64,000 nucleotides of DNA from a virus (IMGVR_UViG_3300032007_000006:185360-249359), one strand, 5' to 3'; positions 5,073 through 53,670 are shown, counted from the stretch's first letter. The notes: generated by a model from the sequence alone, not told the origin. Program-made: numbers and translations.

Positions 5073-6155
5073 CTAGAAAAAGTTGTCTATAGAAGAGGAA
5101 CTGAATGTGGCGTCTTCAACTATTTCACATTTTTCATCTAAAAAACTGAATTTTCTATCTTCCACTTCAAGAAATGAAGTGTCATTCATGCATTCAGTTT
5201 CGTAGACTAAAGGAACCTTCCTGCAGAAGGAATCATCAACCACAAGAGGACAGGTATAGGTCCAGTTGACGCAATGATGAACCCTTCTAAAGGTTACGCC
5301 CATGCACGATACGGACACGGAAGACGGACATAGAACAGCAGAAGGAATGCTTTTGACATATGTACCAAAAGTCCGATACATGTCTGTAATTCCACCACTG
5401 GCCTGTTGAGTTGGAGTCTGGTCTATTGATGGCATGTCAAGAGTCAACGAAAGCTGACCACGCTTTCCATTCAGAATGTAGGCATTCACGTCATCATTGA
5501 ACCGTCCATAATATCTGTATTCCTTTCTGGTGTCTCCAAAAAAGACGTTCATGGCCTTCCATCGGTAGGAATATCTGGCCATGACTGAACCAACGCCGCC
5601 GATGAAGTCTCCAATCTGTGAAAAGGCCGTAATGTACAGCCATGGAGCAGAATTGAGAAGATGGAAATACTTGAGACAGCAATGATCAAAAACAGACAGT
5701 CCTTCGCTTTCTTCACGAGCAAAAAGGGCGGCCCTGATTCTTGGAAAGAATGCTTCTCCAGTGCTCTTCTTTATCATGGCCCTACGCATGACCACGTCAA
5801 CGTAGTCGTCATCCAGAACAATGAACCATCGGTATCCAAGTTCTCTTGCAATGCGGAACTGTTCATTTCTGGCCCATACTGTAGCCTTTCTTGAAAGGCT
5901 TTTTCCCCAGTAGCAGTCCACAAGATCCATGTCATATCGCTTTTCCGCTTCTTCCTTGCTGAAGACATAGATGGAGTCATCTCCAAACGTCTTTCTGTAT
6001 TCGCGAATGGTTGGATCATCATCTGAAAGGACAACTACACGCTTTGCATGAGAATTGACCTCATCCAGAAGCGCCCAAGTATGAGTCTTTAGAAATTCAG
6101 GACGAGTATAGGACAGAATCAATATAACATAGTCTTTAGGACTTTGTGGTCTCAT
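5073..6155 (-). CDS. GT-A-like (DxD) putative glycosyltransferase with a Cys-rich C-terminal region, paralog 1
   Basis: N-terminal VILILSYTRPEF (GT2-like), VVVLSDDD, and YWGKS..TVWARN.F.IA..GYRWFIVLDDDY; start taken at MRPQSPKDYV with a GAGGAG SD. Confidence 0.5.
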   Translation of the reverse strand: MRPQSPKDYVILILSYTRPEFLKTHTWALLDEVNSHAKRVVVLSDDDPTIREYRKTFGDDSIYVFSKEEAEKRYDMDLVDCYWGKSLSRKATVWARNEQFRIARELGYRWFIVLDDDYVDVVMRRAMIKKSTGEAFFPRIRAALFAREESEGLSVFDHCCLKYFHLLNSAPWLYITAFSQIGDFIGGVGSVMARYSYRWKAMNVFFGDTRKEYRYYGRFNDDVNAYILNGKRGQLSLTLDMPSIDQTPTQQASGGITDMYRTFGTYVKSIPSAVLCPSSVSVSCMGVTFRRVHHCVNWTYTCPLVVDDSFCRKVPLVYETECMNDTSFLEVEDRKFSFLDEKCEIVEDATFSSSSIDNFF

Positions 6156-6546
6156 CTTTGCTGTACTCCTCAATGCTTCTGTCCGAAATGTCACGCTTTA
6201 GCACCTTGTCTATATGTCCAGCACCTTTGACTACTCCATATTCAACGGCCTTGTCCAAATCAATGAGAACCATTGCCGACTTTTCCAGCAAATGCTTCAT
6301 TGCTGAACTGGCTTTTGTTGCATACCATTGAGCAGTCTTTCCATAATGAAACTTGATCCATCTGGACGCACACAGCTTCAAAAACGTTGCTTCCGACTTT
6401 GAAATTTCTCCTTTTTTCAAGGAACTGTTGATATAGTTTAAAAGTTCAACATAATTGTCCACGTCAACGCAATCGTTTAGAGAATAGTCGGCGTCAGATG
6501 GTTCAAAAGGAGGAATTGCAAATTTTGTAGTATACTTTTCTTCCAT
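6136..6546 (-). CDS. Hypothetical protein (136 aa), partner-protein paralog B
   Basis: Paralog of the 4521-5063 product; its 3' end overlaps the start of the GT-like gene. Confidence 0.6.
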   Translation of the reverse strand: MEEKYTTKFAIPPFEPSDADYSLNDCVDVDNYVELLNYINSSLKKGEISKSEATFLKLCASRWIKFHYGKTAQWYATKASSAMKHLLEKSAMVLIDLDKAVEYGVVKGAGHIDKVLKRDISDRSIEEYSKDETTKS

Positions 6547-6558
6547 TTACCCTCTTCC

Positions 6559-7626
6559 TCAGCAGAAGTCATTGATTGACGCTTCTTCAAGAGACATGCT
6601 TTCAACAACCTCACACTGTCTGTCCATAATCCTGTATTTTTTCTTCCCGCTGGGAACAGTTTTATTATGCATGCATTCCGACTGAAAGTCAAGAGGTTTT
6701 TCTCTGCACAGAGATTCGTCCACAACCATTGGACAGGTAGTGGACCATTTAATAAGATGATGCACCCTAGGAACAACTGAACCCATGCATGAAACTGATA
6801 CCGATGATGGACATGCAACTACAGAAGTCAAGCTCTTGATATAAGTTCCAAATGTCTTGTAGATATCAGTTATTCCACCAGCAGATTTCTGCGTTGGCTC
6901 CTGATTTATTACCACCTGCATCATGGTCAAGGACATTTGGCCAAGTTTTCCATTCAGAATGTATCCATTAACGTCATCATTCAATTTTCCGTAGTATCGG
7001 TACTCCTTTTCCGTATCACAGAAAAAGACGTTCATTGCCTTCCATCGGTACGGTATCCTGGTAAAAATTGAATTTATTCCACCAACAAAGTCTCCACACT
7101 GGGCCGTGGCCGTCACATGCATCCATGGCGCTGAATTGAGAACATTGAAATACTTGACACAGCACTTGTCAAATATTGACCCATGTTCATCGGAAGGAGC
7201 GAAAATAAGTTCCTTGAACGTAGGGAAAAACTCGGTCTTGTCATCATTGCGGATCATCTTCTTCCGCATGACAATTTCTCTGTAGTCATCATCCAGTACA
7301 ATGAACCATCTGTATCCAAGACTTCTCGCAATCTCAAATTGAGCATTTCTGGCCCATACTGTGGCCTTTCTTGTAAGACTTTTTCCCCAGTAGCAGTCTA
7401 TCGTGTCTATGTCATACTTTCTTTCAATTTCTACTTTGCTGAAAACTGCTATATTCTCCTTTCCATACATTGTTTCATATTCAGGAATGGTTTTGTCGTC
7501 ATCAGACAGAACAACAACTCTTCTGGCCTTGGACTTGACCTTGTCCAGAATATGCCATGTATGACTCTTTAAAAATTCTGGACGTTCATGAGAAAGTATC
7601 AAAATGACGAAGTCCTTGCAGTCCAT
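6559..7626 (-). CDS. GT-A-like (DxD) putative glycosyltransferase with a Cys-rich C-terminal region, paralog 2
   Basis: Roughly 50% identical to the 5073-6155 product across its length, including the LDDDY and C-terminal CPSSVSVSCMG..HH...W..TCP motifs. Confidence 0.5.
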   Translation of the reverse strand: MDCKDFVILILSHERPEFLKSHTWHILDKVKSKARRVVVLSDDDKTIPEYETMYGKENIAVFSKVEIERKYDIDTIDCYWGKSLTRKATVWARNAQFEIARSLGYRWFIVLDDDYREIVMRKKMIRNDDKTEFFPTFKELIFAPSDEHGSIFDKCCVKYFNVLNSAPWMHVTATAQCGDFVGGINSIFTRIPYRWKAMNVFFCDTEKEYRYYGKLNDDVNGYILNGKLGQMSLTMMQVVINQEPTQKSAGGITDIYKTFGTYIKSLTSVVACPSSVSVSCMGSVVPRVHHLIKWSTTCPMVVDESLCREKPLDFQSECMHNKTVPSGKKKYRIMDRQCEVVESMSLEEASINDFC

Positions 7627-9300: not shown

Positions 9301-9945
9301 CTAGAAAGTAAAGCGGAAGGCAAGCTGAGTGTCAATGCCGCGAATCTCGGCCTTGGTGTGGCGCTTTTCAATGCGGCCAAGGTCAACATAGCGGGCAGAC
9401 AGGTCAATGCCGAAGTTTTCAGTAACGGGAACATAGAAGCCGCCACCAGCATTCCAAGCGAAGGTCGTGGCGCTGTGAGTGCCAGAGAACCAGTTGGCGC
9501 CAAGGCCAGCGGTGATGTAGGGCTTCACATAGGGAACAGTGTCAAAGTCATATGCGGCGTTGAAGAAGACAGTGTGGCTGTCAAAGTCAACGGAAGTGCG
9601 ATCAAGATTGATCTTGGTGTTGCCAGTGTAGAGATATTCAACTTCCAGACGGAAGGGAAGGTCATACTTCGGACGGAAATTGTAGCCTACGGAGAGACCA
9701 GTGTTCCACTGGTTGGTGTAGCCGTGACGCCAGGACTGCGTGAGTGCGCCACGCACGTCATCCTGCATCTGGAAAGTCACGCCGACTTTTGGTGCAATGT
9801 AGAAGCCCCATACGTTGGAAGCAGGTTCAGCAGAAACTGCGGCAGGCTGAGCATTCTTTTCCCAGCAGTAGTTCTCGGCCTGAGCGGCCACGGAAGTGAA
9901 AACAAGAGTGGCCACGATGGCCAGAACACTAAAAATGCGTTTCAT
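9301..9945 (-). CDS. Phage-encoded outer-membrane beta-barrel protein (OmpW/OmpX/Ail-Lom-like), 214 aa
   Basis: Signal peptide MKRIFSVLAIVATLVFTSVAAQA; alternating amphipathic beta-strands; C-terminal ...LAFRFTF with a terminal aromatic. Confidence 0.7.
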   Translation of the reverse strand: MKRIFSVLAIVATLVFTSVAAQAENYCWEKNAQPAAVSAEPASNVWGFYIAPKVGVTFQMQDDVRGALTQSWRHGYTNQWNTGLSVGYNFRPKYDLPFRLEVEYLYTGNTKINLDRTSVDFDSHTVFFNAAYDFDTVPYVKPYITAGLGANWFSGTHSATTFAWNAGGGFYVPVTENFGIDLSARYVDLGRIEKRHTKAEIRGIDTQLAFRFTF

Positions 9946-12916: not shown

Positions 12917-13315
12917 TCAACCCCTCTGCTCCTCCTGCTCCTCCTGCTCCTCCTGCTCCTCGCAGAGTTTTGGCAGACTGACCTGAAGCCTATGCTCAAG
13001 CTCAAGGACACGAGCTCCCTGTGCGTCCAGACGCTCTGTAGTTGCCGTCCATCTTATTCTGTTTAGAACATTTTCCTCTTTCAGAGCATCAATCTCCTCA
13101 TCCAGTTTTAAAAATTTAGATCTCTTCTGGATGGCAGATTCTCTTAATTTTTCTTCAATATCATGAATGAAATTATTGGCGTTTGCATACAGACTTTTTG
13201 CTTCCAGTTCAGCATGATCTATGTCTTTTCGGAGAGTTTTTACGCCAGCGGCAAAAAAGACTGCGGCGGTACAGGCTCCTACAGCCGCAGATATTGAACA
13301 AAGCAGTATTTCCAT
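12917..13315 (-). CDS. Membrane-anchored coiled-coil protein (132 aa) with a C-terminal EEQ repeat
   Basis: N-terminal TM segment (LCSISAAVGACTAAVFFAAG), heptad-like region, (EEQ)x4 encoded by a ctcctgctc repeat at 12926-12960. Confidence 0.5.
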   Translation of the reverse strand: MEILLCSISAAVGACTAAVFFAAGVKTLRKDIDHAELEAKSLYANANNFIHDIEEKLRESAIQKRSKFLKLDEEIDALKEENVLNRIRWTATTERLDAQGARVLELEHRLQVSLPKLCEEQEEQEEQEEQRG

Positions 13316-17598: not shown

Positions 17599-17720
17599 TG
17601 CCTTCTCCTAAAAAATGTCTGGCAGGGATGGGCTGATTTGAACAGCCGAGTGACGGAGTCAAAGTCCGTTGCCTTAACCAGCTTGGCTACATCCCCACAT
17701 TCTGCATTTAATGCAGTTCC

Positions 17721-39876: not shown

Positions 39877-40734
39877 ATGAGTGACGTTTATGTATCCAAG
39901 TATCTAAGAACAGATATACCAGCTTCCAGAAGAAAACCAAAAACGCCTGAAGTGTATGATCCGCATGCGTCAAGGTGTCTTCGTGGACTTAATCCATATC
40001 TTTCCTTTAATAATGAGAATTATGACACTTCAAATGAACAGGAAATAGTCAAGCGGCTCCAGGAAGAGCAAATTCAGATGTTTGGCTACAAAGGCCTTTA
40101 CATTCTTAAAGGACATAATACAGTAGACAAATTGTTTGGAGAAGACATTGGTGCATCATATGACTACTGCTTTCCTATTGAGTTCTTTCCTGAGGATGGT
40201 GATGGTCCAGAAAATTCCTGGGCTGTTGAGATGTATGGATTCTCACAGCTTGATACAATTGCAATACATATTGCCTACGACAGACTGAATGAAGAGATTG
40301 CAAGACTTGGCGACAAGGACAGAAAATTTCCTCTTCCAGGAGATCTGTTTAGATATAATTTGACAAAGCAGCTTTTTGAAATTAAATGGGTTTCTGGAAG
40401 ACTTCACAAGTTTATGAAGGGATGTCCAACAATGTACAAGATTGAAATGCAGCTCTTCAATGTAGGTCAGGAAACGTTCAATACTGGAAATGAAGATATT
40501 GACTTTCTCAATACATTCAATCAAACATATCAATATCCCAATGGAGACAATGAAGAAATTAGAAAGGAATCCGCTGAACTGGCACAACCAGAACCAAATA
40601 TATGGAATCTCAATCTTCAAAATCCTGTTTCATATGAACCAGAACTTGAACCAAGACATTCAAAAAAGATTGAACGTCTTGAACCACAAAAAAGACGCAT
40701 AGGAAATAAAATTCGTTTTGAAAAAGTAAAATAA
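39877..40734 (+). CDS. Hypothetical protein (285 aa), probably virion-associated
   Basis: ORF in a late-type context. Confidence 0.45.
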   Translation: MSDVYVSKYLRTDIPASRRKPKTPEVYDPHASRCLRGLNPYLSFNNENYDTSNEQEIVKRLQEEQIQMFGYKGLYILKGHNTVDKLFGEDIGASYDYCFPIEFFPEDGDGPENSWAVEMYGFSQLDTIAIHIAYDRLNEEIARLGDKDRKFPLPGDLFRYNLTKQLFEIKWVSGRLHKFMKGCPTMYKIEMQLFNVGQETFNTGNEDIDFLNTFNQTYQYPNGDNEEIRKESAELAQPEPNIWNLNLQNPVSYEPELEPRHSKKIERLEPQKRRIGNKIRFEKVK

Positions 40735-40756
40735 ATATTTCTAGAGGCTAAGTGCA

Positions 40757-41143
40757 ATGAAATCATTTTTAGAATACTGCTACGACAAAAAGATGGAGTC
40801 AAATGTTGGATCAATTAAGGAAGAGGCCGACTTTGGCGAAATCAATATAGGTGGATTCATTGAACCAGTAATGAGGAAGATGGCTTCTCTCATTGGCGAT
40901 GAAGGACTGCAGGCTGTCATAGACGTTGTGAGTGGATATGGAAATGAATCGCCTGCCGACTATAAAACGGCTAAGAAAGATCTTATGAAGGCTCTCTGGA
41001 GTTCTGACATTCCAGATGACTGCAGCTGGGCCGAAAAGCAGTTTCCTTTCTGGGCTGGATGTCTTGGCAGAGCCTGCAAGGAGAATGATCCTTCAATTCT
41101 GGCCAAGGTACTTACAGATTTGCAGAAAGAGGTGAAAAAATAA
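40757..41143 (+). CDS. Putative internal (capsid-targeted) protein with N-terminal CTS-like MKSFLEY (128 aa)
   Basis: N-terminal CTS-like peptide; AATAAATAT motif upstream. Confidence 0.45.
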   Translation: MKSFLEYCYDKKMESNVGSIKEEADFGEINIGGFIEPVMRKMASLIGDEGLQAVIDVVSGYGNESPADYKTAKKDLMKALWSSDIPDDCSWAEKQFPFWAGCLGRACKENDPSILAKVLTDLQKEVKK

Positions 41144-41634
41144 TGAAAACATTCAAGGAATATCTTCAAGAGCATGATGAATCATGTCGTATTGATGAGG
41201 GAATGTTTGACAAGCTTTTCCAGAAAGCCATGGAAAAACTGGCCATTCTCATCGGTCCAAACAGAATGGCCACTCTTGAAAAGATTCTTTCCAGATGGAA
41301 AGGAAAGGACATAGACAAGAGAACATTGAAAAATGAACTTGAGGCTTCCTTTAAGACTTTTAAGCTTGATCCTGCGGCTTCAAAGGAAATTCAATCTGAA
41401 TGCGTAGATGAAGATGAAGAGCCAGTTGATGAAAGCATTGTTGATCTGCTCATTTGCGCCAATTATGGTTTTTGGACTGCAATCATGGTAAAGGCCGCTC
41501 TTGGTCTTGGAATTCCGATTGTTCTTGGCATTATTCGTGCCGCTATTCAAGCTTCTGCTTCTGCAAAACGCAAGAAAAATGCTTTTGCTAAAGCCAAACA
41601 GGATTTGGATCAACTAAACAAGCAGCTGCGGTAA
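41143..41634 (+). CDS. Putative internal protein with N-terminal CTS MKTFKEYLQE (163 aa); C-terminal hydrophobic segment
   Basis: Near-perfect match to the T4 CTS MKTYQEFIAE. Confidence 0.5.
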   Translation: MKTFKEYLQEHDESCRIDEGMFDKLFQKAMEKLAILIGPNRMATLEKILSRWKGKDIDKRTLKNELEASFKTFKLDPAASKEIQSECVDEDEEPVDESIVDLLICANYGFWTAIMVKAALGLGIPIVLGIIRAAIQASASAKRKKNAFAKAKQDLDQLNKQLR

Positions 41635-41655
41635 AGTCTAGAAATTTTTTTGAGA

Positions 41656-41681
41656 CAGCCTCCCTTTGGGGAGGCTTTTTT
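41656..41681 (+). terminator. Rho-independent terminator (gcctccctttggggaggc plus T6)
   Basis: Stem plus TTTTTT. Confidence 0.65.
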
Positions 41682-41683
41682 AT

Positions 41684-41712
41684 TGACAGGTTTTAAATGA
41701 TGATGTAGACTC
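41684..41712 (+). promoter_or_regulatory. Sigma70-like promoter TTGACAGG-N16-TAGACT
   Basis: -35, 17-bp spacer, -10 TAGACT; upstream of the HD-hydrolase gene. Confidence 0.5.
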
Positions 41713-41735
41713 TAAAAAAATAAGAGGAGGAACTT

Positions 41736-42476
41736 ATGGCTAGAAGAAAGAAAAAGACTGAAGAATCTATAGAGGAAAATCTTGAGCAGAGTCAAGATGC
41801 TGTTCTTTCTGTAGAAAAGGAAGAACCCAAGGAAGAACCCAAGGAAGAACCCAAGGAAGAACCCAAGGAAGAATCCAAGGAAGAATCCAAGGAAGAACCC
41901 AAGGAAGAACCCAAGGAAGAACAAAAAAAGTCTGCAAGAAAAAATCCAGAGACCATAAAGAATGAGCTTATGGAAGAATATGCCGATGCCATTGAGTGGA
42001 TGACAACTTTGCATGAAGGAGATGTAGACAAGATTGGCGTTCCATACTGGACGCATCCGATGGCCGTTGCCATTCGTGTCAAGTCACTAGCCAAGCAGGC
42101 AGGCGTGAATGTCAAGCTGGCCGTTGTTTCAGCCCTTCTGCATGATGTTGTTGAAGATGGCCATGCTTCTATCAAAGAAGTTGAAGCTAGATACGGAAAG
42201 GACGTGGCCAAGGTTGTCGGCATCTTGACAAGAGACCCAAAGTTGAGCTATATGGAGTATATCAAGGAGATTGTGGCTTCGGCAAGCAAGTCGGCCATGA
42301 TAGTCAAGTATGCAGATTTGCTTCATAATACTAGTCCTAGGCGTTTAGCCAATCTTTCTACACAAGATCGTGCCCGCTTGACAAAAAAGTATGAACCAGC
42401 AAAGAGAATACTTGAAAATGCATTTCCATTGCTGAAGTCTCTTGTTTTAAAGCCTTTAAAGAGAAAACAGTCTTAA
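41736..42476 (+). CDS. SpoT/RelA-type HD-domain (p)ppGpp hydrolase (small alarmone hydrolase-like) with an N-terminal KEEP tandem repeat, 246 aa
   Basis: VPYWTHPMAVAIRV ... ALLHDVVEDG matches the SpoT hydrolase HD signature (H...HD.VED); AAGAGGAGG SD. Confidence 0.7.
   Translation: MARRKKKTEESIEENLEQSQDAVLSVEKEEPKEEPKEEPKEEPKEESKEESKEEPKEEPKEEQKKSARKNPETIKNELMEEYADAIEWMTTLHEGDVDKIGVPYWTHPMAVAIRVKSLAKQAGVNVKLAVVSALLHDVVEDGHASIKEVEARYGKDVAKVVGILTRDPKLSYMEYIKEIVASASKSAMIVKYADLLHNTSPRRLANLSTQDRARLTKKYEPAKRILENAFPLLKSLVLKPLKRKQS
41817..41924 (+). repeat. 12-bp tandem repeat x9 (aaggaagaaccc) encoding (KEEP)9
   Basis: Nine near-perfect copies, two with c->t (KEES). Confidence 0.8.
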
Positions 42477-42501
42477 ACCCACAAGTAAAAGGATGCATTC
42501 T

Positions 42502-43551
42502 ATGTTCAGAATGGTTGAGACAGACAAGGCAAAGGCCGTATTTTCTGATGAATTCAACTCCATTTTTGACAAAAAAAGTGGAGAGACGGCCTACTGGGGA
42601 TGCAATTTAGAGAATGATCCTGAGTGCGCCCCATTTCCCATGATTCTTGACATGGAAATAACGACTTCATGCTATGGAATTGGAACTGTCCATGGCAGGA
42701 AGAAGGATGCCGCTCTGAAGTCCAATCCGTGTCCATTTTGCTACAAGGCCAATCATCCAGAAGGGAAGTCCATGTCTCTGGACATGGCTAGAAACATTCT
42801 GGACAAGCTTCCCAAAGGACTAACGCAGATTGCCTATGGTGCAGACGCTTCCCTTGTTGGCAATCCAGAATGGTACAGCATATTCAGTCTCTCCAGAAAG
42901 ATGGGATTCATTCCTAATGTCACTGTTGCCGACATTTCTGATGAAACTGCGGAGAAGCTGGCTTCAGTCTGTGGTGCTGTGGCTGTTTCCTGGTATGGAG
43001 ACAAGGAATGCTGCTTTGGCTCTGTTGAGGCACTTCACAGATATGGACTAAAGCATGTCAATATTCACTGCATGCTGTCCAAGGAGACGCTTGCAAGGAC
43101 GTTTGAAGTCATTGACTGCATTGCAACGGATCCACGTCTCAAGGATCTTTATGCCATTGTCTTTCTTTCCTTGAAAAGAAAAGGAAGGGGAGAGCGTTTT
43201 CACAGGCTTTCCAGCGAAGAGTTCAATCAGGTTGTAGAGAAGTGCAGGAAACTTGGCATTTCCTTCGGATTTGACTCCTGCTCTGCATCCAAGTATCTGT
43301 CCTATGCCAAGGACAATGGTCTTGAATGGACTGAGTCCTACTGCGACATGTGCGAATCTGGCAGGATGTCCTACTACATCAACGTAGACGGAATGGGCTA
43401 TCCCTGCTCTTTCTCCGAAGGAATCATAAAGCCGATTGACGTGTGCAAGGCCAGATTTTTCATTGATGACGTATGGAATCATCCAATCACCCAGTGCTTC
43501 AGGGAACTGTCGTTGATGAATGGATGCAGATGCACCCTCTACAATGTTTAG
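42502..43551 (+). CDS. Cys-rich protein (349 aa), possible Fe-S / radical-SAM-like enzyme; unassigned
   Basis: More than 20 Cys including TSCYGIG...NPCPFCY and YCDMCESG; no canonical CxxxCxxC. Confidence 0.45.
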   Translation: MFRMVETDKAKAVFSDEFNSIFDKKSGETAYWGCNLENDPECAPFPMILDMEITTSCYGIGTVHGRKKDAALKSNPCPFCYKANHPEGKSMSLDMARNILDKLPKGLTQIAYGADASLVGNPEWYSIFSLSRKMGFIPNVTVADISDETAEKLASVCGAVAVSWYGDKECCFGSVEALHRYGLKHVNIHCMLSKETLARTFEVIDCIATDPRLKDLYAIVFLSLKRKGRGERFHRLSSEEFNQVVEKCRKLGISFGFDSCSASKYLSYAKDNGLEWTESYCDMCESGRMSYYINVDGMGYPCSFSEGIIKPIDVCKARFFIDDVWNHPITQCFRELSLMNGCRCTLYNV

Positions 43552-43591
43552 AAGGTCATTTTCGTGTAAATACCTATAGGAGAAATGCACC

Positions 43592-43939
43592 ATGAGCAAA
43601 ACTATTGATGCTTTGAAAACAGCCATTGACTCTATGGCCAAAATCATTGATGACTTGAAGTCTGAAAATGAAAGGCTGAAAAATGAGAACATGTGGCTGA
43701 AAGGCAAGGTGGAGATGTATGAATTGAAGGAGAAGGGGCGTCAGACTCCATACAGTCCTACATTTCCAACACTGCCGTCAGTGCCTACATGGCCCTCCAT
43801 TCCTCCGTGGAACAAAGAGCCAATCATAACATGGACCGACAACCATGTCGAGCCATCTTCCACTTTCAGAAAGAGTTCCTCCAGCATTGAATTGGGCCAG
43901 GCACAAGAGAACATCAAAGTCTCGTGCTGCATTCAATAA
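43592..43939 (+). CDS. Coiled-coil / Pro-rich protein (115 aa)
   Basis: AGGAG SD; heptad repeats then a PTFPTLPSVPTWPSIPPW segment. Confidence 0.45.
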   Translation: MSKTIDALKTAIDSMAKIIDDLKSENERLKNENMWLKGKVEMYELKEKGRQTPYSPTFPTLPSVPTWPSIPPWNKEPIITWTDNHVEPSSTFRKSSSSIELGQAQENIKVSCCIQ

Positions 43940-43949
43940 TGGAGTATAG

Positions 43950-44582
43950 ATGGATAATCTTTCAACCGATAATTTTGAAGCAGGAAAGACTGTTGAGAAG
44001 CCTAAACGCTGCATAAAGTGTCTTTCCTGGATTCTATTGATTGTGATAGGATCATTTCTGCTCTTCTTTATTGGAGATTTCATATGCCGGAATTTCTGCG
44101 ACAGAGGAGTGGCTTTTGCGGCTTCGACAAACGATGTTGCTGGAGTTCACAATGTCATGGATCATGCCTATCCAAAGCTGTCTGATGCAAAGCGTCAAAA
44201 GTATCTGGACAGCATTCTCAAATGGTCCAGGGAATATGATCTCTGTCCAGTAACTGTAGCGTCAATTATCTGGAAGGAAAGCAAATTCAATGAAAAATGC
44301 CGATATCAGGGAGCAATTGGTCCAATGCAGACTATTCCTAGATATCATAGACAGAGAATGGCCAGTGCAGGAATCAGGCACTCGGATCTTGATACCATAG
44401 ACAAGGGAGTGCAGATCGGCTGCATTGTGTTCAGGCACTATATGGACAAGTCCAGAGGAAATGTCTCAAAAGCCTTGAAATACTACAATGGATGCGTAAA
44501 TGCCAAGAATCCAAAGTATGTTCGAGACATTATTGGAATGCGAGACAAGTCCAAATCTAAAAGGACAAAAAGGAAGTCCTAA
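43950..44582 (+). CDS. Membrane-anchored lytic transglycosylase (SLT domain), 210 aa
   Basis: N-terminal TM (LSWILLIVIGSFLLFFIG); catalytic E-S plus AIGPMQT (WKESKFNEKCRYQGAIGPMQ). Confidence 0.75.
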   Translation: MDNLSTDNFEAGKTVEKPKRCIKCLSWILLIVIGSFLLFFIGDFICRNFCDRGVAFAASTNDVAGVHNVMDHAYPKLSDAKRQKYLDSILKWSREYDLCPVTVASIIWKESKFNEKCRYQGAIGPMQTIPRYHRQRMASAGIRHSDLDTIDKGVQIGCIVFRHYMDKSRGNVSKALKYYNGCVNAKNPKYVRDIIGMRDKSKSKRTKRKS

Positions 44583-45646: not shown

Positions 45647-45913
45647 ATGAATTTAATATACAGGGAATATCGCAAATGGCTTGATGGCATTGAGGCCAAC
45701 ATCAGAATGAACTTTCCTGGATGGAATGTGGAACTGCGAGAGCATCGCAAGGGAATATTTGCTCTCTACTTCGGAAATCCATTGGCTAGTCAATGTGACA
45801 GAACCTTCTATCTCAACATGGAGCAGGTAGAATTTCTTGAAACGGCCAGAGAACTTGATCTAGCCAAATTTTTTGAGGATGGCACGTTCTGTCGTCATCC
45901 ATTGGGAGCGTAG
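45647..45913 (+). CDS. Hypothetical protein (88 aa)
   Basis: ORF only. Confidence 0.4.
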   Translation: MNLIYREYRKWLDGIEANIRMNFPGWNVELREHRKGIFALYFGNPLASQCDRTFYLNMEQVEFLETARELDLAKFFEDGTFCRHPLGA

Positions 45914-45932
45914 AGTGATTGGAATCCATAAG

Positions 45933-46958
45933 ATGAATGAGTCCTATGCCAGGATGGAATATGATGAGGACAAGGAATTAAGTCTCATATACAATGCTCT
46001 GAGCTACTATCCAGAAAACTACAGGTTTATGCCAGCATTCAAGAATGGCATGTGGGATGGACAGATTCATCTTATGGATGCCTCTACTGGAGCATTTCCC
46101 CTTGGCTTGACAAGACATGTTCTCAAGACGGCCAAGGAGCTTGGCATCGAGTTCAAAGTGGACTCTGAAGTGGCCAGATGCTTTGTAGACATGGGATTCA
46201 ATGAGGCGCACTTTCAGTCATTTCTGGACGCCACAAGGTTTTTCTCTGGAGGAAAGGAGATATTCCCAAGAGACGATCAAATTGAAGCAACCAGACGCGC
46301 ACTGGAAAGCAGACGATGCATCAATCTCTGTCCCACTTCATTCGGCAAGTCGCTGTCCATTACAATGGAATGCCTCTATCTTGTTCAGCAGGGAAAGACT
46401 TGCATCATTGTCGTGCCAACAAAGGGACTTGTGGAGCAGTTTGCGAATGATATCAAGGACTATGCCACCAATGAAAAGGGAGAACTTGAGTCATGGATGC
46501 CGAAGCTTCAGTTGATATATGGTGGAAAAGACAAGGATCTCAAGGATGACACTCAAATCTGCATATCAACCTGGCAGTCTCTGTACAGCATCTGGAAAAG
46601 CGACAAGAAGTACATGAACCAGTTTGACTGCATATGCTTGGATGAGTGTTTTGATGGAGAATCGTTAGTAGCAATGGCTGATGGTTCTTGTAAAAAAATA
46701 AAAGATATTGTCGTTGGAGATAAAATCTTAAACTATTCTGAAGATAAAAAGATTTTTAAAGAAGATATTGTTGAATCTGTACATAAAAATCTGTATGTTT
46801 CAATGAAAGAAAAAATGCTTGAATTGTTGTTTGATAATGGAACTATCATTCAATGCACAGCAAATCACAAGTTTTTAACAAAAAGAGGATGGAAGCGAGC
46901 AGATGAATTAAATGGAGATGATGAAATTGTAGAGCATGTCGCACCATCGACCATATAG
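45933..46958 (+). CDS. SF2 (DExH, UvsW-like) helicase N-terminal extein fused to a split-intein N-fragment (IntN about 103 aa)
   Basis: Helicase motif I CPTSFGKS, Ia, motif II LDE then the intein CFDGESLVAMADGS (Block A) ... TANHKF (Block B), then a stop. Confidence 0.7.
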   Translation: MNESYARMEYDEDKELSLIYNALSYYPENYRFMPAFKNGMWDGQIHLMDASTGAFPLGLTRHVLKTAKELGIEFKVDSEVARCFVDMGFNEAHFQSFLDATRFFSGGKEIFPRDDQIEATRRALESRRCINLCPTSFGKSLSITMECLYLVQQGKTCIIVVPTKGLVEQFANDIKDYATNEKGELESWMPKLQLIYGGKDKDLKDDTQICISTWQSLYSIWKSDKKYMNQFDCICLDECFDGESLVAMADGSCKKIKDIVVGDKILNYSEDKKIFKEDIVESVHKNLYVSMKEKMLELLFDNGTIIQCTANHKFLTKRGWKRADELNGDDEIVEHVAPSTI

Positions 46959-47962
46959 CAAAATTAAAGAATCTTCTAATGCAATTTTAGAAAGTAACAA
47001 TCAATACACAAGAATCGAATTTATCAATCGCGAAAGAATCGAATTAAACAATGGATTAAAACTGACTGGAACAGAAAAACAAAAGTTTTTAAAGATAATT
47101 ACACATTTAAAAACTGAAATGTGGAGAGAAAGTGTTGACTATATTGTAAATGGAGATTTTAATGAACGATATGAAGAAATTAGAAAGAAAGTCAACTATA
47201 AGAATAATTCTGAATTATTAAAACATCGAATAGCAACAGGACAATTAGATCCGAGAACATGCTTAGGAAAAGATCCTTGGAATAAAGGAAAGCATTATAA
47301 AAGAAAAGTGCCGTTTAGTGATATTGAACGACAGCGTCATAGAGAATGCAAGCTTGGAACAAAAAATCCAATGTATGGTGTGTTACATTCTCAAGAATAT
47401 AAGAAAATCGTATCGGATAGAATGAAAGAAAAGATTTTAAAAGGAGAGTTTACACCCAATACAAACAATAGATATACACATTTTGATGTAACATACAGAG
47501 GAAAGGTATTTCGTTCTTCATGGGAAGCAGTGTTTTATTGCAAATATCATGAAACTTATCAGTATGAAAAATTAAGGATTCCGTATACCTTTGATAATGA
47601 AAATCACATTTATATTGTTGATTTCATTAATGAGCAAGATAAAATCGCTGTAGAAATAAAGCCATCTAGCATTCTAGAGCGTAATAGCAAAGAACAAGCC
47701 AAATTAAACGCTTTAAAGACATGGTGCATCAACAATGAATATAAATTATGGGTTGTCGATGAAAATGACATTAGAAATATTGTATATGAATTGAATAGTT
47801 TAGAGGAATTTGACTACTCCACACAGCAAAAACTAATAAAGCAATTTGGAGTTAAAAATGAGACTTCTAGCTGTTAAAGAGATTGAAAAACCCAATACGG
47901 TATATAATCTTTCTGTAAAAAATGATCACAACTATATTGTTAATGGTGCAGTAGTTTCAAAC
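46647..47962 (+). mobile_element. Split intein plus free-standing HE cassette fracturing the helicase gene
   Basis: IntN 46647-46955, HE 46936-47877, IntC 47846-47962; strongly AT-rich relative to the exteins. Confidence 0.65.
46936..47877 (+). CDS. Free-standing homing endonuclease (PD-(D/E)xK C-terminal domain) located between the split-intein halves, 313 aa
   Basis: HIYIVDF...IAVEIKP (D...E.K), GTKNPMYG motif shared with the second free-standing HE; different frame from both helicase fragments; AT-rich. Confidence 0.55.
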   Translation: MSHHRPYSKIKESSNAILESNNQYTRIEFINRERIELNNGLKLTGTEKQKFLKIITHLKTEMWRESVDYIVNGDFNERYEEIRKKVNYKNNSELLKHRIATGQLDPRTCLGKDPWNKGKHYKRKVPFSDIERQRHRECKLGTKNPMYGVLHSQEYKKIVSDRMKEKILKGEFTPNTNNRYTHFDVTYRGKVFRSSWEAVFYCKYHETYQYEKLRIPYTFDNENHIYIVDFINEQDKIAVEIKPSSILERNSKEQAKLNALKTWCINNEYKLWVVDENDIRNIVYELNSLEEFDYSTQQKLIKQFGVKNETSSC

Positions 47963-48790
47963 TGCCATCGAGGCAGTGGTCGTGCGATTCAGGCTGTAAT
48001 GACTTCAGCAAAGGACGTTGGAATTCGTACAGGATGGACTGGAACTCTGGCCAATGAGCAGATAAATGAAATGCTCATTCGTGGACTTTTTGGAGAGCCG
48101 AGACAGATTGTCACCACGATTGAATTGATGGACAAGAAAATAGTGGCTCAGCTGAAGATAAGCATAATGAAACTGATTTATCCTGATGGATGGGGAAGGT
48201 CATTCAAGCTGCTGGACTATGCAAATCAATGCAAGTATTTTGAGGAGCTGCAGGAGAGAACGGATGCCATAGCAGGAATGGCTTTGAACAGAAACGAAAC
48301 TGGCTTGATGCTCTACAGAAAGATTGCCCATGGAGAAGCAATCTTTGAAGCATTAAAACGTATGGCTCCCGAAAGAAACATATATCTTGTCCATTCTGGC
48401 CATTTTCAGAGAAATGAAGAGAAGTTCAAGTCTTTTGAAGACTTAAAGCCGTTGCTTGAGCAGGAAAAGGATGCAGTGCTTGTCGCAAACTATCAGCTGG
48501 TCGGCACTGGCGTATCAATCAAGAACCTTCATTTCGTGATGTTTGCCGCTCCAATCAAGTCCTACATCACCACAATTCAGAGTATTGGACGTGGTCTTAG
48601 AGTGTCAGCCACGAAAAAGAGCGTTGAACTGATAGACATAGTGGATGACATGTCCTATAGGGCCAGAGTGAACATAGTTCAGAACTATGCCTTGAAGCAT
48701 TATGCCGAACGATACAAGATATACGCGGCAAATGGATTTGACTGCTCCATGGATTCCATGCACATAGAGCCAAAGGAAAAGACATTCTAG
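47846..48790 (+). CDS. Split-intein C-fragment (IntC 39 aa) fused to the helicase C-terminal extein
   Basis: VYNLSVKNDHNYIVNGAVVSN (Blocks F/G) then +1 Cys; CH completes motif II LDE|CH; motif VI QSIGRGLR. Confidence 0.7.
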   Translation: MELKMRLLAVKEIEKPNTVYNLSVKNDHNYIVNGAVVSNCHRGSGRAIQAVMTSAKDVGIRTGWTGTLANEQINEMLIRGLFGEPRQIVTTIELMDKKIVAQLKISIMKLIYPDGWGRSFKLLDYANQCKYFEELQERTDAIAGMALNRNETGLMLYRKIAHGEAIFEALKRMAPERNIYLVHSGHFQRNEEKFKSFEDLKPLLEQEKDAVLVANYQLVGTGVSIKNLHFVMFAAPIKSYITTIQSIGRGLRVSATKKSVELIDIVDDMSYRARVNIVQNYALKHYAERYKIYAANGFDCSMDSMHIEPKEKTF

Positions 48791-50766: not shown

Positions 50767-53670
50767 CTAGTTGATGTACTTGAAGTATATGTCGCCATCA
50801 TTGCCACCAGACGGATCACCTGTTCCATAGCGTATTGTCGCTCCAGCAGTAATTGCTCCAGAATTTAGATATGTCAACTGATGTGCTCCGCCAACATTTG
50901 CATTTGAAGCAGTCAATGTTCCACCATTCATGTACATTAACTGCGTTGTAGAACCAACTGTATCTCCAGATGCAGTTAATGTTCCTGCATTGAGATATAT
51001 CGGTTTCTTTGCACTTCCAACTGTATCTCCAGATGCTGTTATCTTTCCACCACTTAGATATACTGGATTTTTGGCATTGCCAACATTGGACGTTGATTTT
51101 GTAAGTTTTCCTGAACTTAGGAATATAGGCTCTGTTCCGGAACCAACTGTTGTTGTGGTCTTTGTCAGTGTTCCTCCAGTCAGATATATGGGTTCGGTTT
51201 CTGAACCGACTGTGGATGTAGATGCAGTTATTGTTCCACCTGTCAGATATACTGGCTTTATTCCTGAACCAACTGTTGAATTTGAAACACTAATTGCTCC
51301 ATTGTTGAGATATACTGGCTTTATTCCGGAACCAACTGTTGATGTTGATGCCGTTGCAACGCCTTTATTGAGATAAATCGGAACAATTCCAGAACCGATT
51401 GTGGAGAGACCAAGTTTTGATGCAGTAGTTGCTATATGATTAAGCTGCTTTTTGTCGCCGCGAATATAGTATATTTTTCCAGTGAATTCATTGGAAGCAA
51501 TGCGTCCGTGACCAATTGTTTCGTATATTTCGTTGATGCAATGTGCATTGCTTGTAGATACATACTGTCCGCTTGCATTTGCTTCCCAGCGAATGTCATT
51601 TTTGATGTCATAGACAATGGCATCCTTGATGTTTTTAGAATTCAGAGCGGCAATGGTAACTTCAGCATCTTCAGTTGATTCGCAGACGTATACGCCTTTT
51701 ACCATATAGTCGGCCTGCCAGGCCTGATCTGCTGGATTTCGCTTGCTTTTTGCTCCAAACAGCATCATTCCTTCATCCATCATGTGGATGACGTTCATTG
51801 GATTTGTTGCTGGATCAATTGGAATAAGTGGAGTCGGTTCTGGAACTGGATCATTCTGACGTTCTATGTATTGAACATAGGATTCTCCAAGAAAGTCCGT
51901 TATATTTTTTATTTCTTCAAATATGGAATTTCCTACGAGACTTTTCAGTCCTCTGCAAAGTTCCTCTGGTGCCATGGAACCAAATAAAAGTTCCTTTAGA
52001 TTGTGTGGACCAGATTTTGGTTCATCTTCATCAACGCATACTGGAGCTGAATTAAACAAGTCAATAAGATCTTCTCCAATGGCATCTTTAAGAAGAATTG
52101 TTTCCTTTAGCAAGGAGCCTGTAGACATTCTTTTCCAGATGCTGCACATTGTTTCGTTGACTGCCAGATCTCCAAATAGAAGATCTCCAATGTCTACTGG
52201 ACTTGGATCAGATGAAGATATTTTCCAGCTGTCATTCTTGCTTTCTTCAAGAAGACACGTTTTTGTTTTAGATGCAGATTCGCTGGAAGAAACTGAATAT
52301 GTTACGTCCTGATAAATTCCTGGAACAATTGTATCGTATGTTGCTTCAATAAGACTCCAGGAATTTCCAGAATATGCAAAAAGGCCGGTCTTGCTGCATT
52401 CAAATTCCGAATCAAAGAATCCAGAGTTGACATTCAGTTTTACAGCAATGCATGCGGCATCTCCTTCCTTTGGTGAAGGAACCATTGTTCTTATTGGAGA
52501 TGGATTTCCTCCTCCGCCATTTAAGGCATACTTGATGAATTCCTGCTTGATAAGCGATTCCATTGTTGTAACGCTGGAATTGCCAGAAACAGTCTTTATT
52601 GCTGCAGTAGATGAAGGATTTTCAGCCTGCTGTGCAGTAGTTGACGTTAGTGTTGATGGATAGAGATACTGCTTGGAATTGTATGTAGGAACTGGAAGAT
52701 TATACTCATTTTGAGAATGGCCTTTATAGTCATATCTCGTTTGATTTAATCTGGCCCAGTTTCCATTTAAGCGTCTCCAAAGCTGCTGTCGTTTAGTTGT
52801 AGATTCAACCATGCATCTTTTATTAGTGTCTGTTAGCCACTCATAAAATGGAAGACCAATGCGGTCGATTATTTTGACTGTTTCTGTAGCCAGTCCACCA
52901 GTTGTAAATCTATCCCATACTTCTGAAAAATTTGCATTGCCATTAAAGAAAAACTGCCGCAGTCCTCCAATTGGACGACTTCCTTGAACAGGAGACAATT
53001 TGTCCAGCCAGTCATAGAAGGCTGAACTAAAAATGTCTTCTATGACATGCATCAATGAATTAGCCAGTCCTTGTGAATCTCCATGCAGATTGCGACAGGC
53101 TCGTCCAAATATGTCATCTGTATCTGCATCGGTTCTATCTCTTGCACCGAATAGCATTTCGGCCAGATCGGCTGGTTCTCCAATGCTTGTACCAGTTTTT
53201 AGCGTATTATCTGGATTATGAGTCTTGTTGTAAAAGTAGGAATAAAGACTTCCCCAGGTATTGATATTTCTTTGAAGCAGCTTGTCTATGCTCTGTACAA
53301 GACCAAACTTGTGGGCCTTTATTCTTTTCGTTTCTGTGCCATCAAACGTTGTGCCAGTTCCACCAACCTTTGAAACTCTTGAGTTTTCTGGAACATCTGT
53401 TCCATCTGGCTTTTTCGTGGCGATCTCCTCTTCAAAGAATGGAGATCTCTTTCGCCCAGGAATTGGAGTAGTCCATGCAATAGTAACTGGAGTATCATGC
53501 GTTTCGGTTAATCCGAGCGTGTATATAAGATCATTAATTCTCTGCCACCATTCCCCCATAATGTTTGTATAGTCAAGTGGAGTGACGGCATATATTTCCT
53601 TCAATTGAGTGCATCCTTTAATGAATTCGCTCAATCTAGATTTGGTTGAATTATTTCCTGCGTCAGGCAT
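50767..53670 (-). CDS. Tail fibre protein (967 aa) with nine C-terminal 19-aa repeats
   Basis: Repeats VGSG.KP.YL..G..T.S.ST x9 at about 50800-51400; TTGTAAATA 22 nt upstream. Confidence 0.6.
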   Translation of the reverse strand: MPDAGNNSTKSRLSEFIKGCTQLKEIYAVTPLDYTNIMGEWWQRINDLIYTLGLTETHDTPVTIAWTTPIPGRKRSPFFEEEIATKKPDGTDVPENSRVSKVGGTGTTFDGTETKRIKAHKFGLVQSIDKLLQRNINTWGSLYSYFYNKTHNPDNTLKTGTSIGEPADLAEMLFGARDRTDADTDDIFGRACRNLHGDSQGLANSLMHVIEDIFSSAFYDWLDKLSPVQGSRPIGGLRQFFFNGNANFSEVWDRFTTGGLATETVKIIDRIGLPFYEWLTDTNKRCMVESTTKRQQLWRRLNGNWARLNQTRYDYKGHSQNEYNLPVPTYNSKQYLYPSTLTSTTAQQAENPSSTAAIKTVSGNSSVTTMESLIKQEFIKYALNGGGGNPSPIRTMVPSPKEGDAACIAVKLNVNSGFFDSEFECSKTGLFAYSGNSWSLIEATYDTIVPGIYQDVTYSVSSSESASKTKTCLLEESKNDSWKISSSDPSPVDIGDLLFGDLAVNETMCSIWKRMSTGSLLKETILLKDAIGEDLIDLFNSAPVCVDEDEPKSGPHNLKELLFGSMAPEELCRGLKSLVGNSIFEEIKNITDFLGESYVQYIERQNDPVPEPTPLIPIDPATNPMNVIHMMDEGMMLFGAKSKRNPADQAWQADYMVKGVYVCESTEDAEVTIAALNSKNIKDAIVYDIKNDIRWEANASGQYVSTSNAHCINEIYETIGHGRIASNEFTGKIYYIRGDKKQLNHIATTASKLGLSTIGSGIVPIYLNKGVATASTSTVGSGIKPVYLNNGAISVSNSTVGSGIKPVYLTGGTITASTSTVGSETEPIYLTGGTLTKTTTTVGSGTEPIFLSSGKLTKSTSNVGNAKNPVYLSGGKITASGDTVGSAKKPIYLNAGTLTASGDTVGSTTQLMYMNGGTLTASNANVGGAHQLTYLNSGAITAGATIRYGTGDPSGGNDGDIYFKYIN

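Follow-up and report, generated by a model that had tools for sequence, protein, structure and literature searches.

What does a small alarmone hydrolase encoded by a T4-like jumbo phage act upon, and what is to be made of the repetitive, charged arm that precedes its catalytic domain and differs in length from one relative to the next? The gene that raises both questions lies within the window, by which is meant the whole 64,000-nucleotide stretch of viral DNA analysed here. The enzyme class, and its occurrence in phages, are already known; phage alarmone hydrolases are thought to disarm abortive infection of the toxSAS type, and automatic annotation mostly describes them as ppGpp hydrolases. 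What is new at this locus is a predicted specificity for adenosine nucleotides, to be set against that usual annotation, and an N-terminal arm, specific to one clade, in which a conserved cap is followed by hypervariable repeats.

Some background on the known enzymes is needed. CapRel and other toxSAS serve bacteria as abortive-infection effectors against phages (PMC9712102). The preliminary description of this locus was on familiar ground in stating that such enzymes let phages counter alarmone-based host responses, as phage small alarmone hydrolases (SAHs) are known to neutralise alarmone-type toxins (PMC7229694). The SAHs of the Salmonella phages PVP-SE1 (PbcSpo) and SSU5 (PaSpo) neutralise all five toxSAS tested (Jimmy et al. 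2020, PMC7229694), and PaSpo has become a routine detoxifier of CapRel(SJ46) and FaRel2. The SAHs ATfaRel (C. marina) and MESH1 strip the 3'-pyrophosphate that FaRel2 puts on tRNA CCA ends (Kurata et al., bioRxiv 10.1101/2021.04.30.441581). Atd1, which is also cited as a phage alarmone-degrading enzyme, was set aside, being MazG-like and unrelated.

The gene content of the window, with a gp14-type neck protein, UvsY, UvsW, a gp44 clamp loader, a T4-type RNase H, NrdD and ThyX, is that of a distantly related T4-like jumbo phage, and related contigs measure 224-384 kb. The distance is considerable, the clamp loader being at most 43% identical to that of any cultured phage (cyanophage and Pelagibacter T4-like phages), and a near-identity DNA search with positions 41000-44000 against 50,697 phage records gave no match; there is no cultured close relative. 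Scans of IMG/VR by protein, by family alignment and by the exact repeat-flank pattern found no relatives, and the exact repeat-flank pattern was absent from the JGI metagenomes. In all lineages compared the gene order is the same, namely neck protein, two small ORFs, HD hydrolase, a 352-aa protein (radical-SAM), (a coiled-coil protein) and SLT. The gene itself and the signals ahead of it are as follows.

41657..41676 (+): intrinsic-terminator-like hairpin, AGCCTCCC-TTTG-GGGAGGCT, G+C-rich and followed by a T-run
41683..41711 (+): sigma-70-type promoter-like site, TTGACA-17-TAGACT, 10/12 matches, immediately past the terminator
41724..41730 (+): Shine-Dalgarno sequence GAGGAGG, with the ATG 5 nt further on
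41736..42476 (+): complete small alarmone hydrolase gene with an N-terminal extension, ATG start, 246 aa

The reading frame proposed earlier (41736-42476, + strand, ATG, 246 aa) was exact, and the minus-strand ORFs that run across the repeat (FFLG..., LPWV...) are shadow ORFs. The Shine-Dalgarno sequence was read directly from the DNA, and GGAGG-type sites are found in the relatives too. The hairpin and its T-run recur at the equivalent position in 8 related loci (a count that leaves out L014, the sequence of which begins too near its contig end), with stem sequences that differ, and the TTGAC(A) element has kept its position in 9 of the 9 lineages compared. Judged by these signals, the hairpin closes the upstream two-gene unit, and the promoter-like site suggests that the hydrolase gene is a separate unit read by the host sigma-70 RNA polymerase. 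The possession of a promoter of its own that matches the sigma-70 consensus would make early expression probable.

The assignment of the protein to a family depends on its catalytic domain, the main parts of which are these.

41943..42449 (+): all-helical HD hydrolase domain, aa ~70-238, AF2 pLDDT mostly >90
42054..42056 (+): H107, metal ligand, in the HP motif
42141..42158 (+): H136-D137 (HD motif) and E140-D141 (catalytic ED pair)
42315..42329 (+): D194 (metal ligand, equivalent to Aph1 D110) and N198 (equivalent to Aph1 N114)

The AlphaFold2 model was built from 16 family sequences. Pfam HD_4 (PF13328) scores 36.8 bits against a cut-off of 27.2 and spans aa 85-173, Pfam HD scores 33.5 bits against a cut-off of 22, and the PHROGs match is phrog_990 'metal-dependent phosphohydrolase' (8.6e-36). 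Among PDB sequences the matches are MESH1/HDDC3, RelSeq, Lmo0812, SpoT and Aph1, with MESH1 and RelSeq having the best full-length E-values; PADLOC returned a noise-level match only. The 246 residues hold only HD-type domains, with no synthetase, TGS or ACT domain, and NCBIfam TIGR00691 (spoT_relA) reaches 59.2 bits against a cut-off of 499.2, with model positions 3-135 alone covered. By these criteria the protein is a stand-alone, single-domain SAH of the RelA/SpoT-homologue HD superfamily and not a multidomain SpoT-type enzyme, because it consists of an HD domain and a disordered arm and falls below the spoT_relA cut-off. This agrees with the preliminary description in so far as the latter had placed it among the RelA/SpoT HD hydrolases as a small alarmone hydrolase, and the two HD motifs quoted there are both present, as PYWTHPMAVAIRV and LLHDVVEDGH. 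The residues H107, H136-D137, D194, E140-D141 and N198 align to their counterparts in MESH1, RelSeq and Aph1. When 1.84 billion representatives were searched exhaustively, these residues also proved nearly invariant among the 161 nearest proteins: none of the 161 lacks H136, D137 or E140, 156 have D141, and H107, D194 and N198 are found in 160-161.

The catalytic apparatus is thus one that the window protein has in common with the hydrolase domains of MESH1/HDDC3 and of Rel/SpoT (PDB 3nr1, 5vxa, 1vj7, 6s2t), with which it shares the fold and the H...HD...ED...D...N set. It differs from them in having Asp-Lys where they have Arg-Lys/Arg, in R203 and a KY signature that they do not possess, and, as far as the long RSHs are concerned, in having none of their synthetase, TGS and ACT domains. 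These differences lead to Aph1 (adenosine 3'-pyrophosphohydrolase 1), a (p)ppApp-specific hydrolase from a Bacteroides caccae prophage (Ahmad et al. 2023, PMC10083569). The Aph signature comprises D24, R96, D116, R119, K133 and Y134, and D24/K25/A26 of Aph1 stand where TtRel has the guanine-contacting R43/R44/S45; moreover, ppGpp activity of Aph1 is not detectable, and a D24R+R119A double mutant gains ppGpp hydrolysis (PMC10083569). Among PDB structures Foldseek places Aph1 (7smg, E-value 1.6e-6) first, ahead of MESH1, TtRel and RelSeq, with a target-normalised TM of 0.82-0.84, an rmsd of 2.1 A over ~144 columns (chains A, B) and an identity of 26-27%. Residue-level HMMER alignments to 7smg were made with half-domain profiles of the clade; these were needed, as phmmer with the C-terminal 76 aa alone did not retrieve Aph1 from the PDB. 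In the N-terminal half, Aph1 'KAHSGQIDKAGSAYIFHPIRVSN' was aligned to the clade profile 'alHegdvDKaGvPYWtHPliVsi' or, in a shorter view, Aph1 'HSGQIDKAGSAYIFHP' to 'HegdvDKaGvPYWtHP' (window: HEGDVDKIGVPYWTHP), which places D98-K99, and with the C-terminal half-domain profile Aph1 was the top PDB match. Three sites follow from these alignments.

42027..42032 (+): D98-K99, equivalent to Aph1 D24-K25, where Rel/SpoT have the R-K that contacts guanine
42342..42344 (+): R203, equivalent to the Aph1 specificity residue R119
42384..42392 (+): K217-K218-Y219, equivalent to Aph1 K133/Y134

The guanine-stacking Arg (RelSeq R44, TtRel R43) is Asp98 in the window protein, whereas in the same alignment output RelSeq, S. 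aureus Rel, the 8fr8 RelA chain and Lmo0812 all have R-K at the D98-K99 site. Every member of the clade has Asp at this position, as have 152/161 of the nearest proteins; R203 is likewise invariant in the clade, with R at that site in 153/161. K217 corresponds to K133 and Y219 to Y134, with a one-residue insertion between them; Y219 is invariant in the clade, Y is found there in 155 of the nearest proteins, and K or R at 218 in 157. The two remaining positions are less faithful. Aph1 D116 is S200 in the window protein, S, N or D in the clade, and most often D among the 161 nearest (D 64, S 31, N 22), while Aph1 R96 is E178, which adjoins K177, every clade member having Lys at either 177 or 178. 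Four of the six positions of the Aph signature are therefore matched, including both specificity-switch residues, and two (D116 and R96) are not. As Asp98 replaces the guanine-stacking Arg and Arg203 stands at the R119 position, adenosine 3'-pyrophosphates are predicted to be preferred, so that the substrate is likely of this kind rather than ppGpp; strict (p)ppApp specificity is uncertain because of the two unmatched positions.

The resemblance to Aph1 extends to the single HD domain, to the metal and catalytic residues, to D24/K25, R119 and K133/Y134, and to a C-terminal motif, 'L(S/T)EKD..RL.K(K)Y', that is common to both proteins. It does not extend to overall sequence, as identity is ~27%, nor to S200 and E178, and to the compact Aph1 fold the window protein adds a 66-aa disordered arm, terminal helices (one of them at the N-terminal side) and a tail of basic residues (KRK) at the C-terminus. 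The settings differ as well: the window gene has no MuF-Apk toxin as neighbour, and Aph1 belongs to a temperate phage, whereas the window, in which no lysogeny gene was seen, comes from a T4-like jumbo phage.

The same substrate-site residues are encountered in cultured phages, DK...R...KY being common to all five homologues that were aligned.

Cronobacter phage GAP31: gp029 (GAP31_029), annotated as similar to a PVP-SE1 protein, 32% identity to the window protein
Acinetobacter phage ABPH49: homologue with DK...R...KY
Streptococcus phage phiARI0455b: phiARI0455b_12, with a MuF-domain gene two genes upstream, as for Aph1
Stenotrophomonas phage S72: homologue with DK...R...KY
Streptomyces phage Quantum: homologue with DK...R...KY

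PbcSpo and PaSpo are, like the window protein, stand-alone phage HD hydrolases, and the link to them passes through GAP31_029 at 32% identity. The hydrolase is best taken as Aph1-like and, on the basis of pairwise identity and motifs shared with GAP31_029, as probably PbcSpo-like as well. The sampled phage homologues, this jumbo-phage clade included, carry Aph1-type residues for adenosine specificity, and a host pathway different from the one implied by the usual annotation would be expected as their target.

The account that we favour, and regard as on balance probable although far from secure, is that of an Aph1-like HD SAH that is made early, acts on adenosine 3'-pyrophosphate substrates and serves against toxSAS. 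A metal-dependent HD hydrolase would be produced early in infection from its own sigma-70-like promoter, and hydrolysis of the 3'-pyrophosphate ester would fall to its H107/H136-D137/D194 metal centre, aided by E140-D141 and N198. Its preferred substrates would be (p)ppApp and, plausibly, 3'-pyrophosphorylated tRNA-CCA, ppGpp not being the main substrate; we infer that an adenosine-selective hydrolase would suit both of these, because the terminal nucleotide of the tRNA is an adenosine. Its role would be to neutralise host toxSAS effectors (CapRel, PhRel, FaRel) and toxins of the Apk/Tas type. The length of the spacer would meanwhile drift by in-frame slippage of short repeats, with the protein never being switched off. 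Of this account, the fold, the catalytic and specificity-site residues, the variation of the repeat and the conservation of the regulatory signals are observed, whereas substrate, timing and anti-defence role are inferred.

Other substrates and other roles have to be weighed against this account. The preliminary description had called the protein a SpoT-type (p)ppGpp hydrolase, and one could envisage a SpoT/Mesh1-like enzyme that lowers host ppGpp and so stops the stringent response from restricting the phage. Restriction of phages by the stringent response, and phage countermeasures to it, are documented; the best full-length sequence matches in the PDB are MESH1 and RelSeq, the catalytic residues common with ppGpp hydrolases are all in place, and specificity might be relaxed, given that S200 and E178 are off the Aph1 signature. 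Such an enzyme would, however, have to act on ppGpp with an Asp in place of the guanine-stacking Arg, clade-wide and in 152/161 of the nearest proteins, and with an Arg at the R119 position. Aph1, to which the structure is closest, has the same residues, and its activity on ppGpp is below detection. We consider it unlikely, and the SpoT-type label itself does not survive a spoT_relA score of 59 bits against 499, Asp98 at the guanine-stacking position, the Aph1 signature and the structural match to Aph1.

Two further proposals move away from the host alarmones altogether. The main substrate might be a nucleotide used in immune signalling or, on the model of MESH1, NADPH or PAPS. It is true that the leading Foldseek matches include MESH1 bound to NADPH and to PAPS, and that HD hydrolases are known to be promiscuous (PMC9765508); but the nearest proteins by signature and by fold are (p)ppApp hydrolases and SAHs that neutralise toxSAS, which makes this highly improbable. 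The enzyme might instead protect the infected cell from a (p)ppApp synthetase toxin of the phage itself, in the way that Aph1 is paired with the MuF-fused Apk2. The Aph signature residues that the window protein has in common with Aph1, and the position of the Aph1 and phiARI0455b_12 genes just downstream of MuF-domain genes, would be in keeping with such a pairing. In the window (64 kb of ~326 kb), however, a Pfam search of the 41 ORFs found no RelA_SpoT synthetase and no MuF domain, which argues against an Aph1-style toxin-immunity pair; the conserved neighbours are the neck protein, two small ORFs, the radical-SAM protein and SLT, and the gene has a promoter of its own. Of the readings considered here we hold this to be the least probable.

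The second question concerns the arm. It occupies the first 66 residues, and its parts are the following.

41736..41933 (+): intrinsically disordered N-terminal extension, aa 1-66, a cap and then an acidic E/P/K-rich linker, AF2 pLDDT <50
41736..41765 (+): conserved polybasic cap at the N-terminus, MARRKKKTEE; net charge +5 over residues 1-8
41817..41922 (+): in-frame tandem repeat, 12-bp x 8.8, unit AAGGAAGAACCC, encoding KEEP/KEES/KEEQ

Tandem Repeats Finder gives it 97% matches and scores it at 198, higher than any other array in the 64-kb window. Exact self-matches at period 12 reach 45 bases in the window, whereas in shuffles (n=50) they never exceeded 11. It had been described as (KEEP)9; the tandem 12-bp repeat is real, but it is not pure, as the peptide (aa 28-63) reads KEEP x4, KEES x2, KEEP x2 and KEEQ x1. 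Codons are identical across the units, so the repetition is one of the DNA itself. On/off phase variation was considered and rejected, as every repeat unit is a multiple of 3 bp, and changes in copy number therefore alter the length of the protein without ever switching the gene off.

That such changes take place is evident from the relatives. A comparison of copy number had been suggested as a check; it gave 8.8 copies in the window and 6.8 in a second assembly, a 326-kb ENA contig (L001), the two being identical over 12,717 bases save for one 24-bp gap that corresponds to two repeat units. In sister lineages other in-frame E/P-rich repeats, with units of 6, 9, 12, 15 or 18 bp, occupy the same spot and vary in copy number.

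L010, L011 and P0004: 12-bp unit GAGGAACCCAAG; 4.2, 5.2 and about 2 copies
L012, L014 and L013: 18-bp EPVKEP unit; 5.3, 6.4 and 11.7 copies
L015: 9-bp unit GAGCCTGCT and a 15-bp unit; 10.6 and 3.0 copies
L004: 6-bp (EP) unit adjoining a scaffold gap; at least 6.5 copies
L002: no DNA repeat; 115-aa extension

In every one of the close pairs the HD domain has 0 indels, and the arm has 6-22 gap positions. The proposal that the repeat is a slippage-prone, length-variable linker is well supported by the 24-bp difference and by the repeats of the sister lineages, and it holds throughout the clade.

It may be objected that differences in repeat number arose during assembly, or that the linker has no function and its length varies without any effect on fitness. 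The copy numbers come from short-read assemblies, two of which fail at the repeat (the contig of an 89%-identical relative, L003, terminates within the same repeat, and the scaffold N-gap of L004 falls at it), so individual counts could be wrong, and arrays that exceed the read length may be miscounted, especially the 210-bp array of L013; in addition, the linker of L002 is long yet without any DNA repeat. The array in the window, at 106 bp, is nevertheless shorter than common read lengths, and differences in copy number recur in three separate lineages with different repeat units. As for neutrality, the composition of the linker, its net negative charge and the +5 cap have been kept while the sequence has not, which argues for constraint on the character of the linker and not on its exact length. 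Artefact or noise is an explanation that deserves to be taken seriously, and we think it rather unlikely.

The constraint can be described more closely. The cap, MAR(R/K)(K/R)(K/R)K, with +5 over residues 1-8, is found in all full-length relatives (43-60% identity), and as L004 uses different codons for it, the conservation is at the protein level. The order of parts in the relatives is likewise constant: cap, an acidic E/P-rich stretch of 27-89 aa, a short and mostly basic segment, the HD domain and a basic KRK tail. The linker of the window protein has a net charge of -15, and those of the relatives range from -8 to -21. The conserved cap and the constrained composition both argue that the arm is not junk. 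The MARRKKK cap and acidic linker are confined to this narrow clade, which alone matched the N-terminal profile positions when 1.84 billion representatives were searched; the next matches are SAHs of 140-190 aa without the arm, other N-terminal extensions among the matches are unrelated to it, and none of the five cultured-phage homologues aligned has an N-terminal extension.

Spacers of this composition are known from quite different proteins, such as the (Glu-Pro)n(Lys-Pro)m region of TonB and the PEVK segments of titin, which are extended and rich in E, P and K. The arm is like them in composition (E, P, K, V), in its repetitive low complexity and in a likely extended, non-globular conformation; it is unlike them in that there is no homology, the resemblance being compositional only, and in that it is carried by a cytoplasmic phage enzyme. 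In the literature on phage proteins, a search brought up no relevant parallel to such a repeat linker.

Two possible uses of the arm were considered and found to lack support. The cap does not appear to be a shared targeting signal, as no other ORF in the window begins with a comparable polybasic N-terminus. Nor does anything support packaging into the capsid in the manner of T4 internal proteins, as the two ORFs upstream have CTS-like N-termini that the hydrolase does not resemble, and between them and its gene lie a terminator and a promoter.

Our best guess, to which we assign a low probability, is that the arm works electrostatically, as a tether or spacer that reaches out to something polyanionic (RNA, ribosome, membrane). 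In a more elaborate form of this idea, which we regard as quite improbable, the cap and E/P-rich spacer would make up a functional tether that docks the hydrolase where toxSAS act, with its reach retuned by in-frame slippage in the course of an arms race. If this were so, the arm would be a length-adjustable module on an anti-defence enzyme and not a passive linker; unless a tethering role is demonstrated, it is a curiosity and not a new principle. In either case an arm that is hypervariable in length and constrained in composition amounts to a natural experiment on the length of a disordered linker in a viral enzyme. Polyanionic sites at which a tether of this kind might dock include the ribosome, the tRNA pool and the membrane surface.

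The HD protein, a small alarmone hydrolase, has diverged more quickly than the products of most surrounding genes, as judged from a comparison of two related loci of other phage lineages (L010 and L011) with positions 39877..44582 of the window. Identity is approximately 60% in the HD domain, as against 78% for the 163-aa ORF, 80% for the upstream gp14-type neck protein and 84% for the product of the downstream SLT gene, and reaches approximately 95% for a radical-SAM-like protein of 352 aa, which is far more conserved than the HD protein. The quick divergence of the HD protein is compatible with either arms-race pressure or gene replacement. The 352-aa protein is encoded as follows:

42493..43551, + strand: Cys-rich protein, 352 aa (phrog_7293)

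This ORF lies directly 3' of the HD gene, which it abuts or overlaps in some relatives. The protein itself has no match in Pfam; it has at least 1,955 homologues, many of them labelled radical SAM or SPASM (PF13186, PF04055), and its candidate cluster motif, C-x19-C-x2-C, is unusual.

On the other side, across all the related loci, two small ORFs are placed between the neck and HD genes:

40757..41143, + strand: small ORF, N-terminus MKSFLEYCYD
41143..41634, + strand: small ORF (163 aa), N-terminus MKTFKEYLQE

By eye these adjacent ORFs look paralogous, and their N-termini are similar to MKTYQEFIAE, the capsid-targeting sequence of T4 internal proteins; their products may be packaged and injected. 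The second carries a hydrophobic segment toward its C-terminal end. Neither ORF was matched in Pfam or PHROG, and a tblastn search of cultured phages with 41143..41634 found nothing.

Elsewhere in the window, the UvsW helicase gene is fractured (45873..48790, + strand), in a layout that resembles the split-intein 'fractured gene' arrangement:

45873..46958, + strand: N-terminal part of UvsW fused to a Hint/intein N-domain
46936..47877, + strand: free-standing NUMOD3/TnsA-like endonuclease ORF, in another frame, between the UvsW parts
47846..48790, + strand: Helicase_C part of UvsW

In the related locus L002 UvsW is intact (519 aa). An intein that bears a LAGLIDADG domain interrupts another gene:

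135..3134, - strand: NrdD, anaerobic ribonucleotide reductase, 999 aa

Coding tandem repeats also occur outside the HD gene. Diverged 63-bp (21-aa) repeats at 50954..51375 lie within an ORF that has no Pfam match and may encode a fibre or surface protein:

50767..53670, - strand: ORF of 967 aa

A perfect 9-bp x 4 repeat, CTGCTCCTC, at 12926..12961 within the ORF 12917..13315 (- strand), is a second in-frame coding microsatellite of this phage.

Other genes of the window are:

5073..6194, - strand: TET-associated glycosyltransferase (TAGT)
6559..7626, - strand: TET-associated glycosyltransferase (TAGT)
9301..9945, - strand: outer-membrane beta-barrel protein, OmpA/Opacity-like
17620..17696, - strand: tRNA-Gln(TTG), a single tRNA gene

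The two TAGT genes, which are paralogues, suggest that the DNA bases of this phage are hypermodified and glycosylated, and the phage-encoded beta-barrel protein implies a diderm host. The window additionally holds genes of the GNAT, DUF932, DUF2828/DUF7788 and SPFH/Band 7 types.
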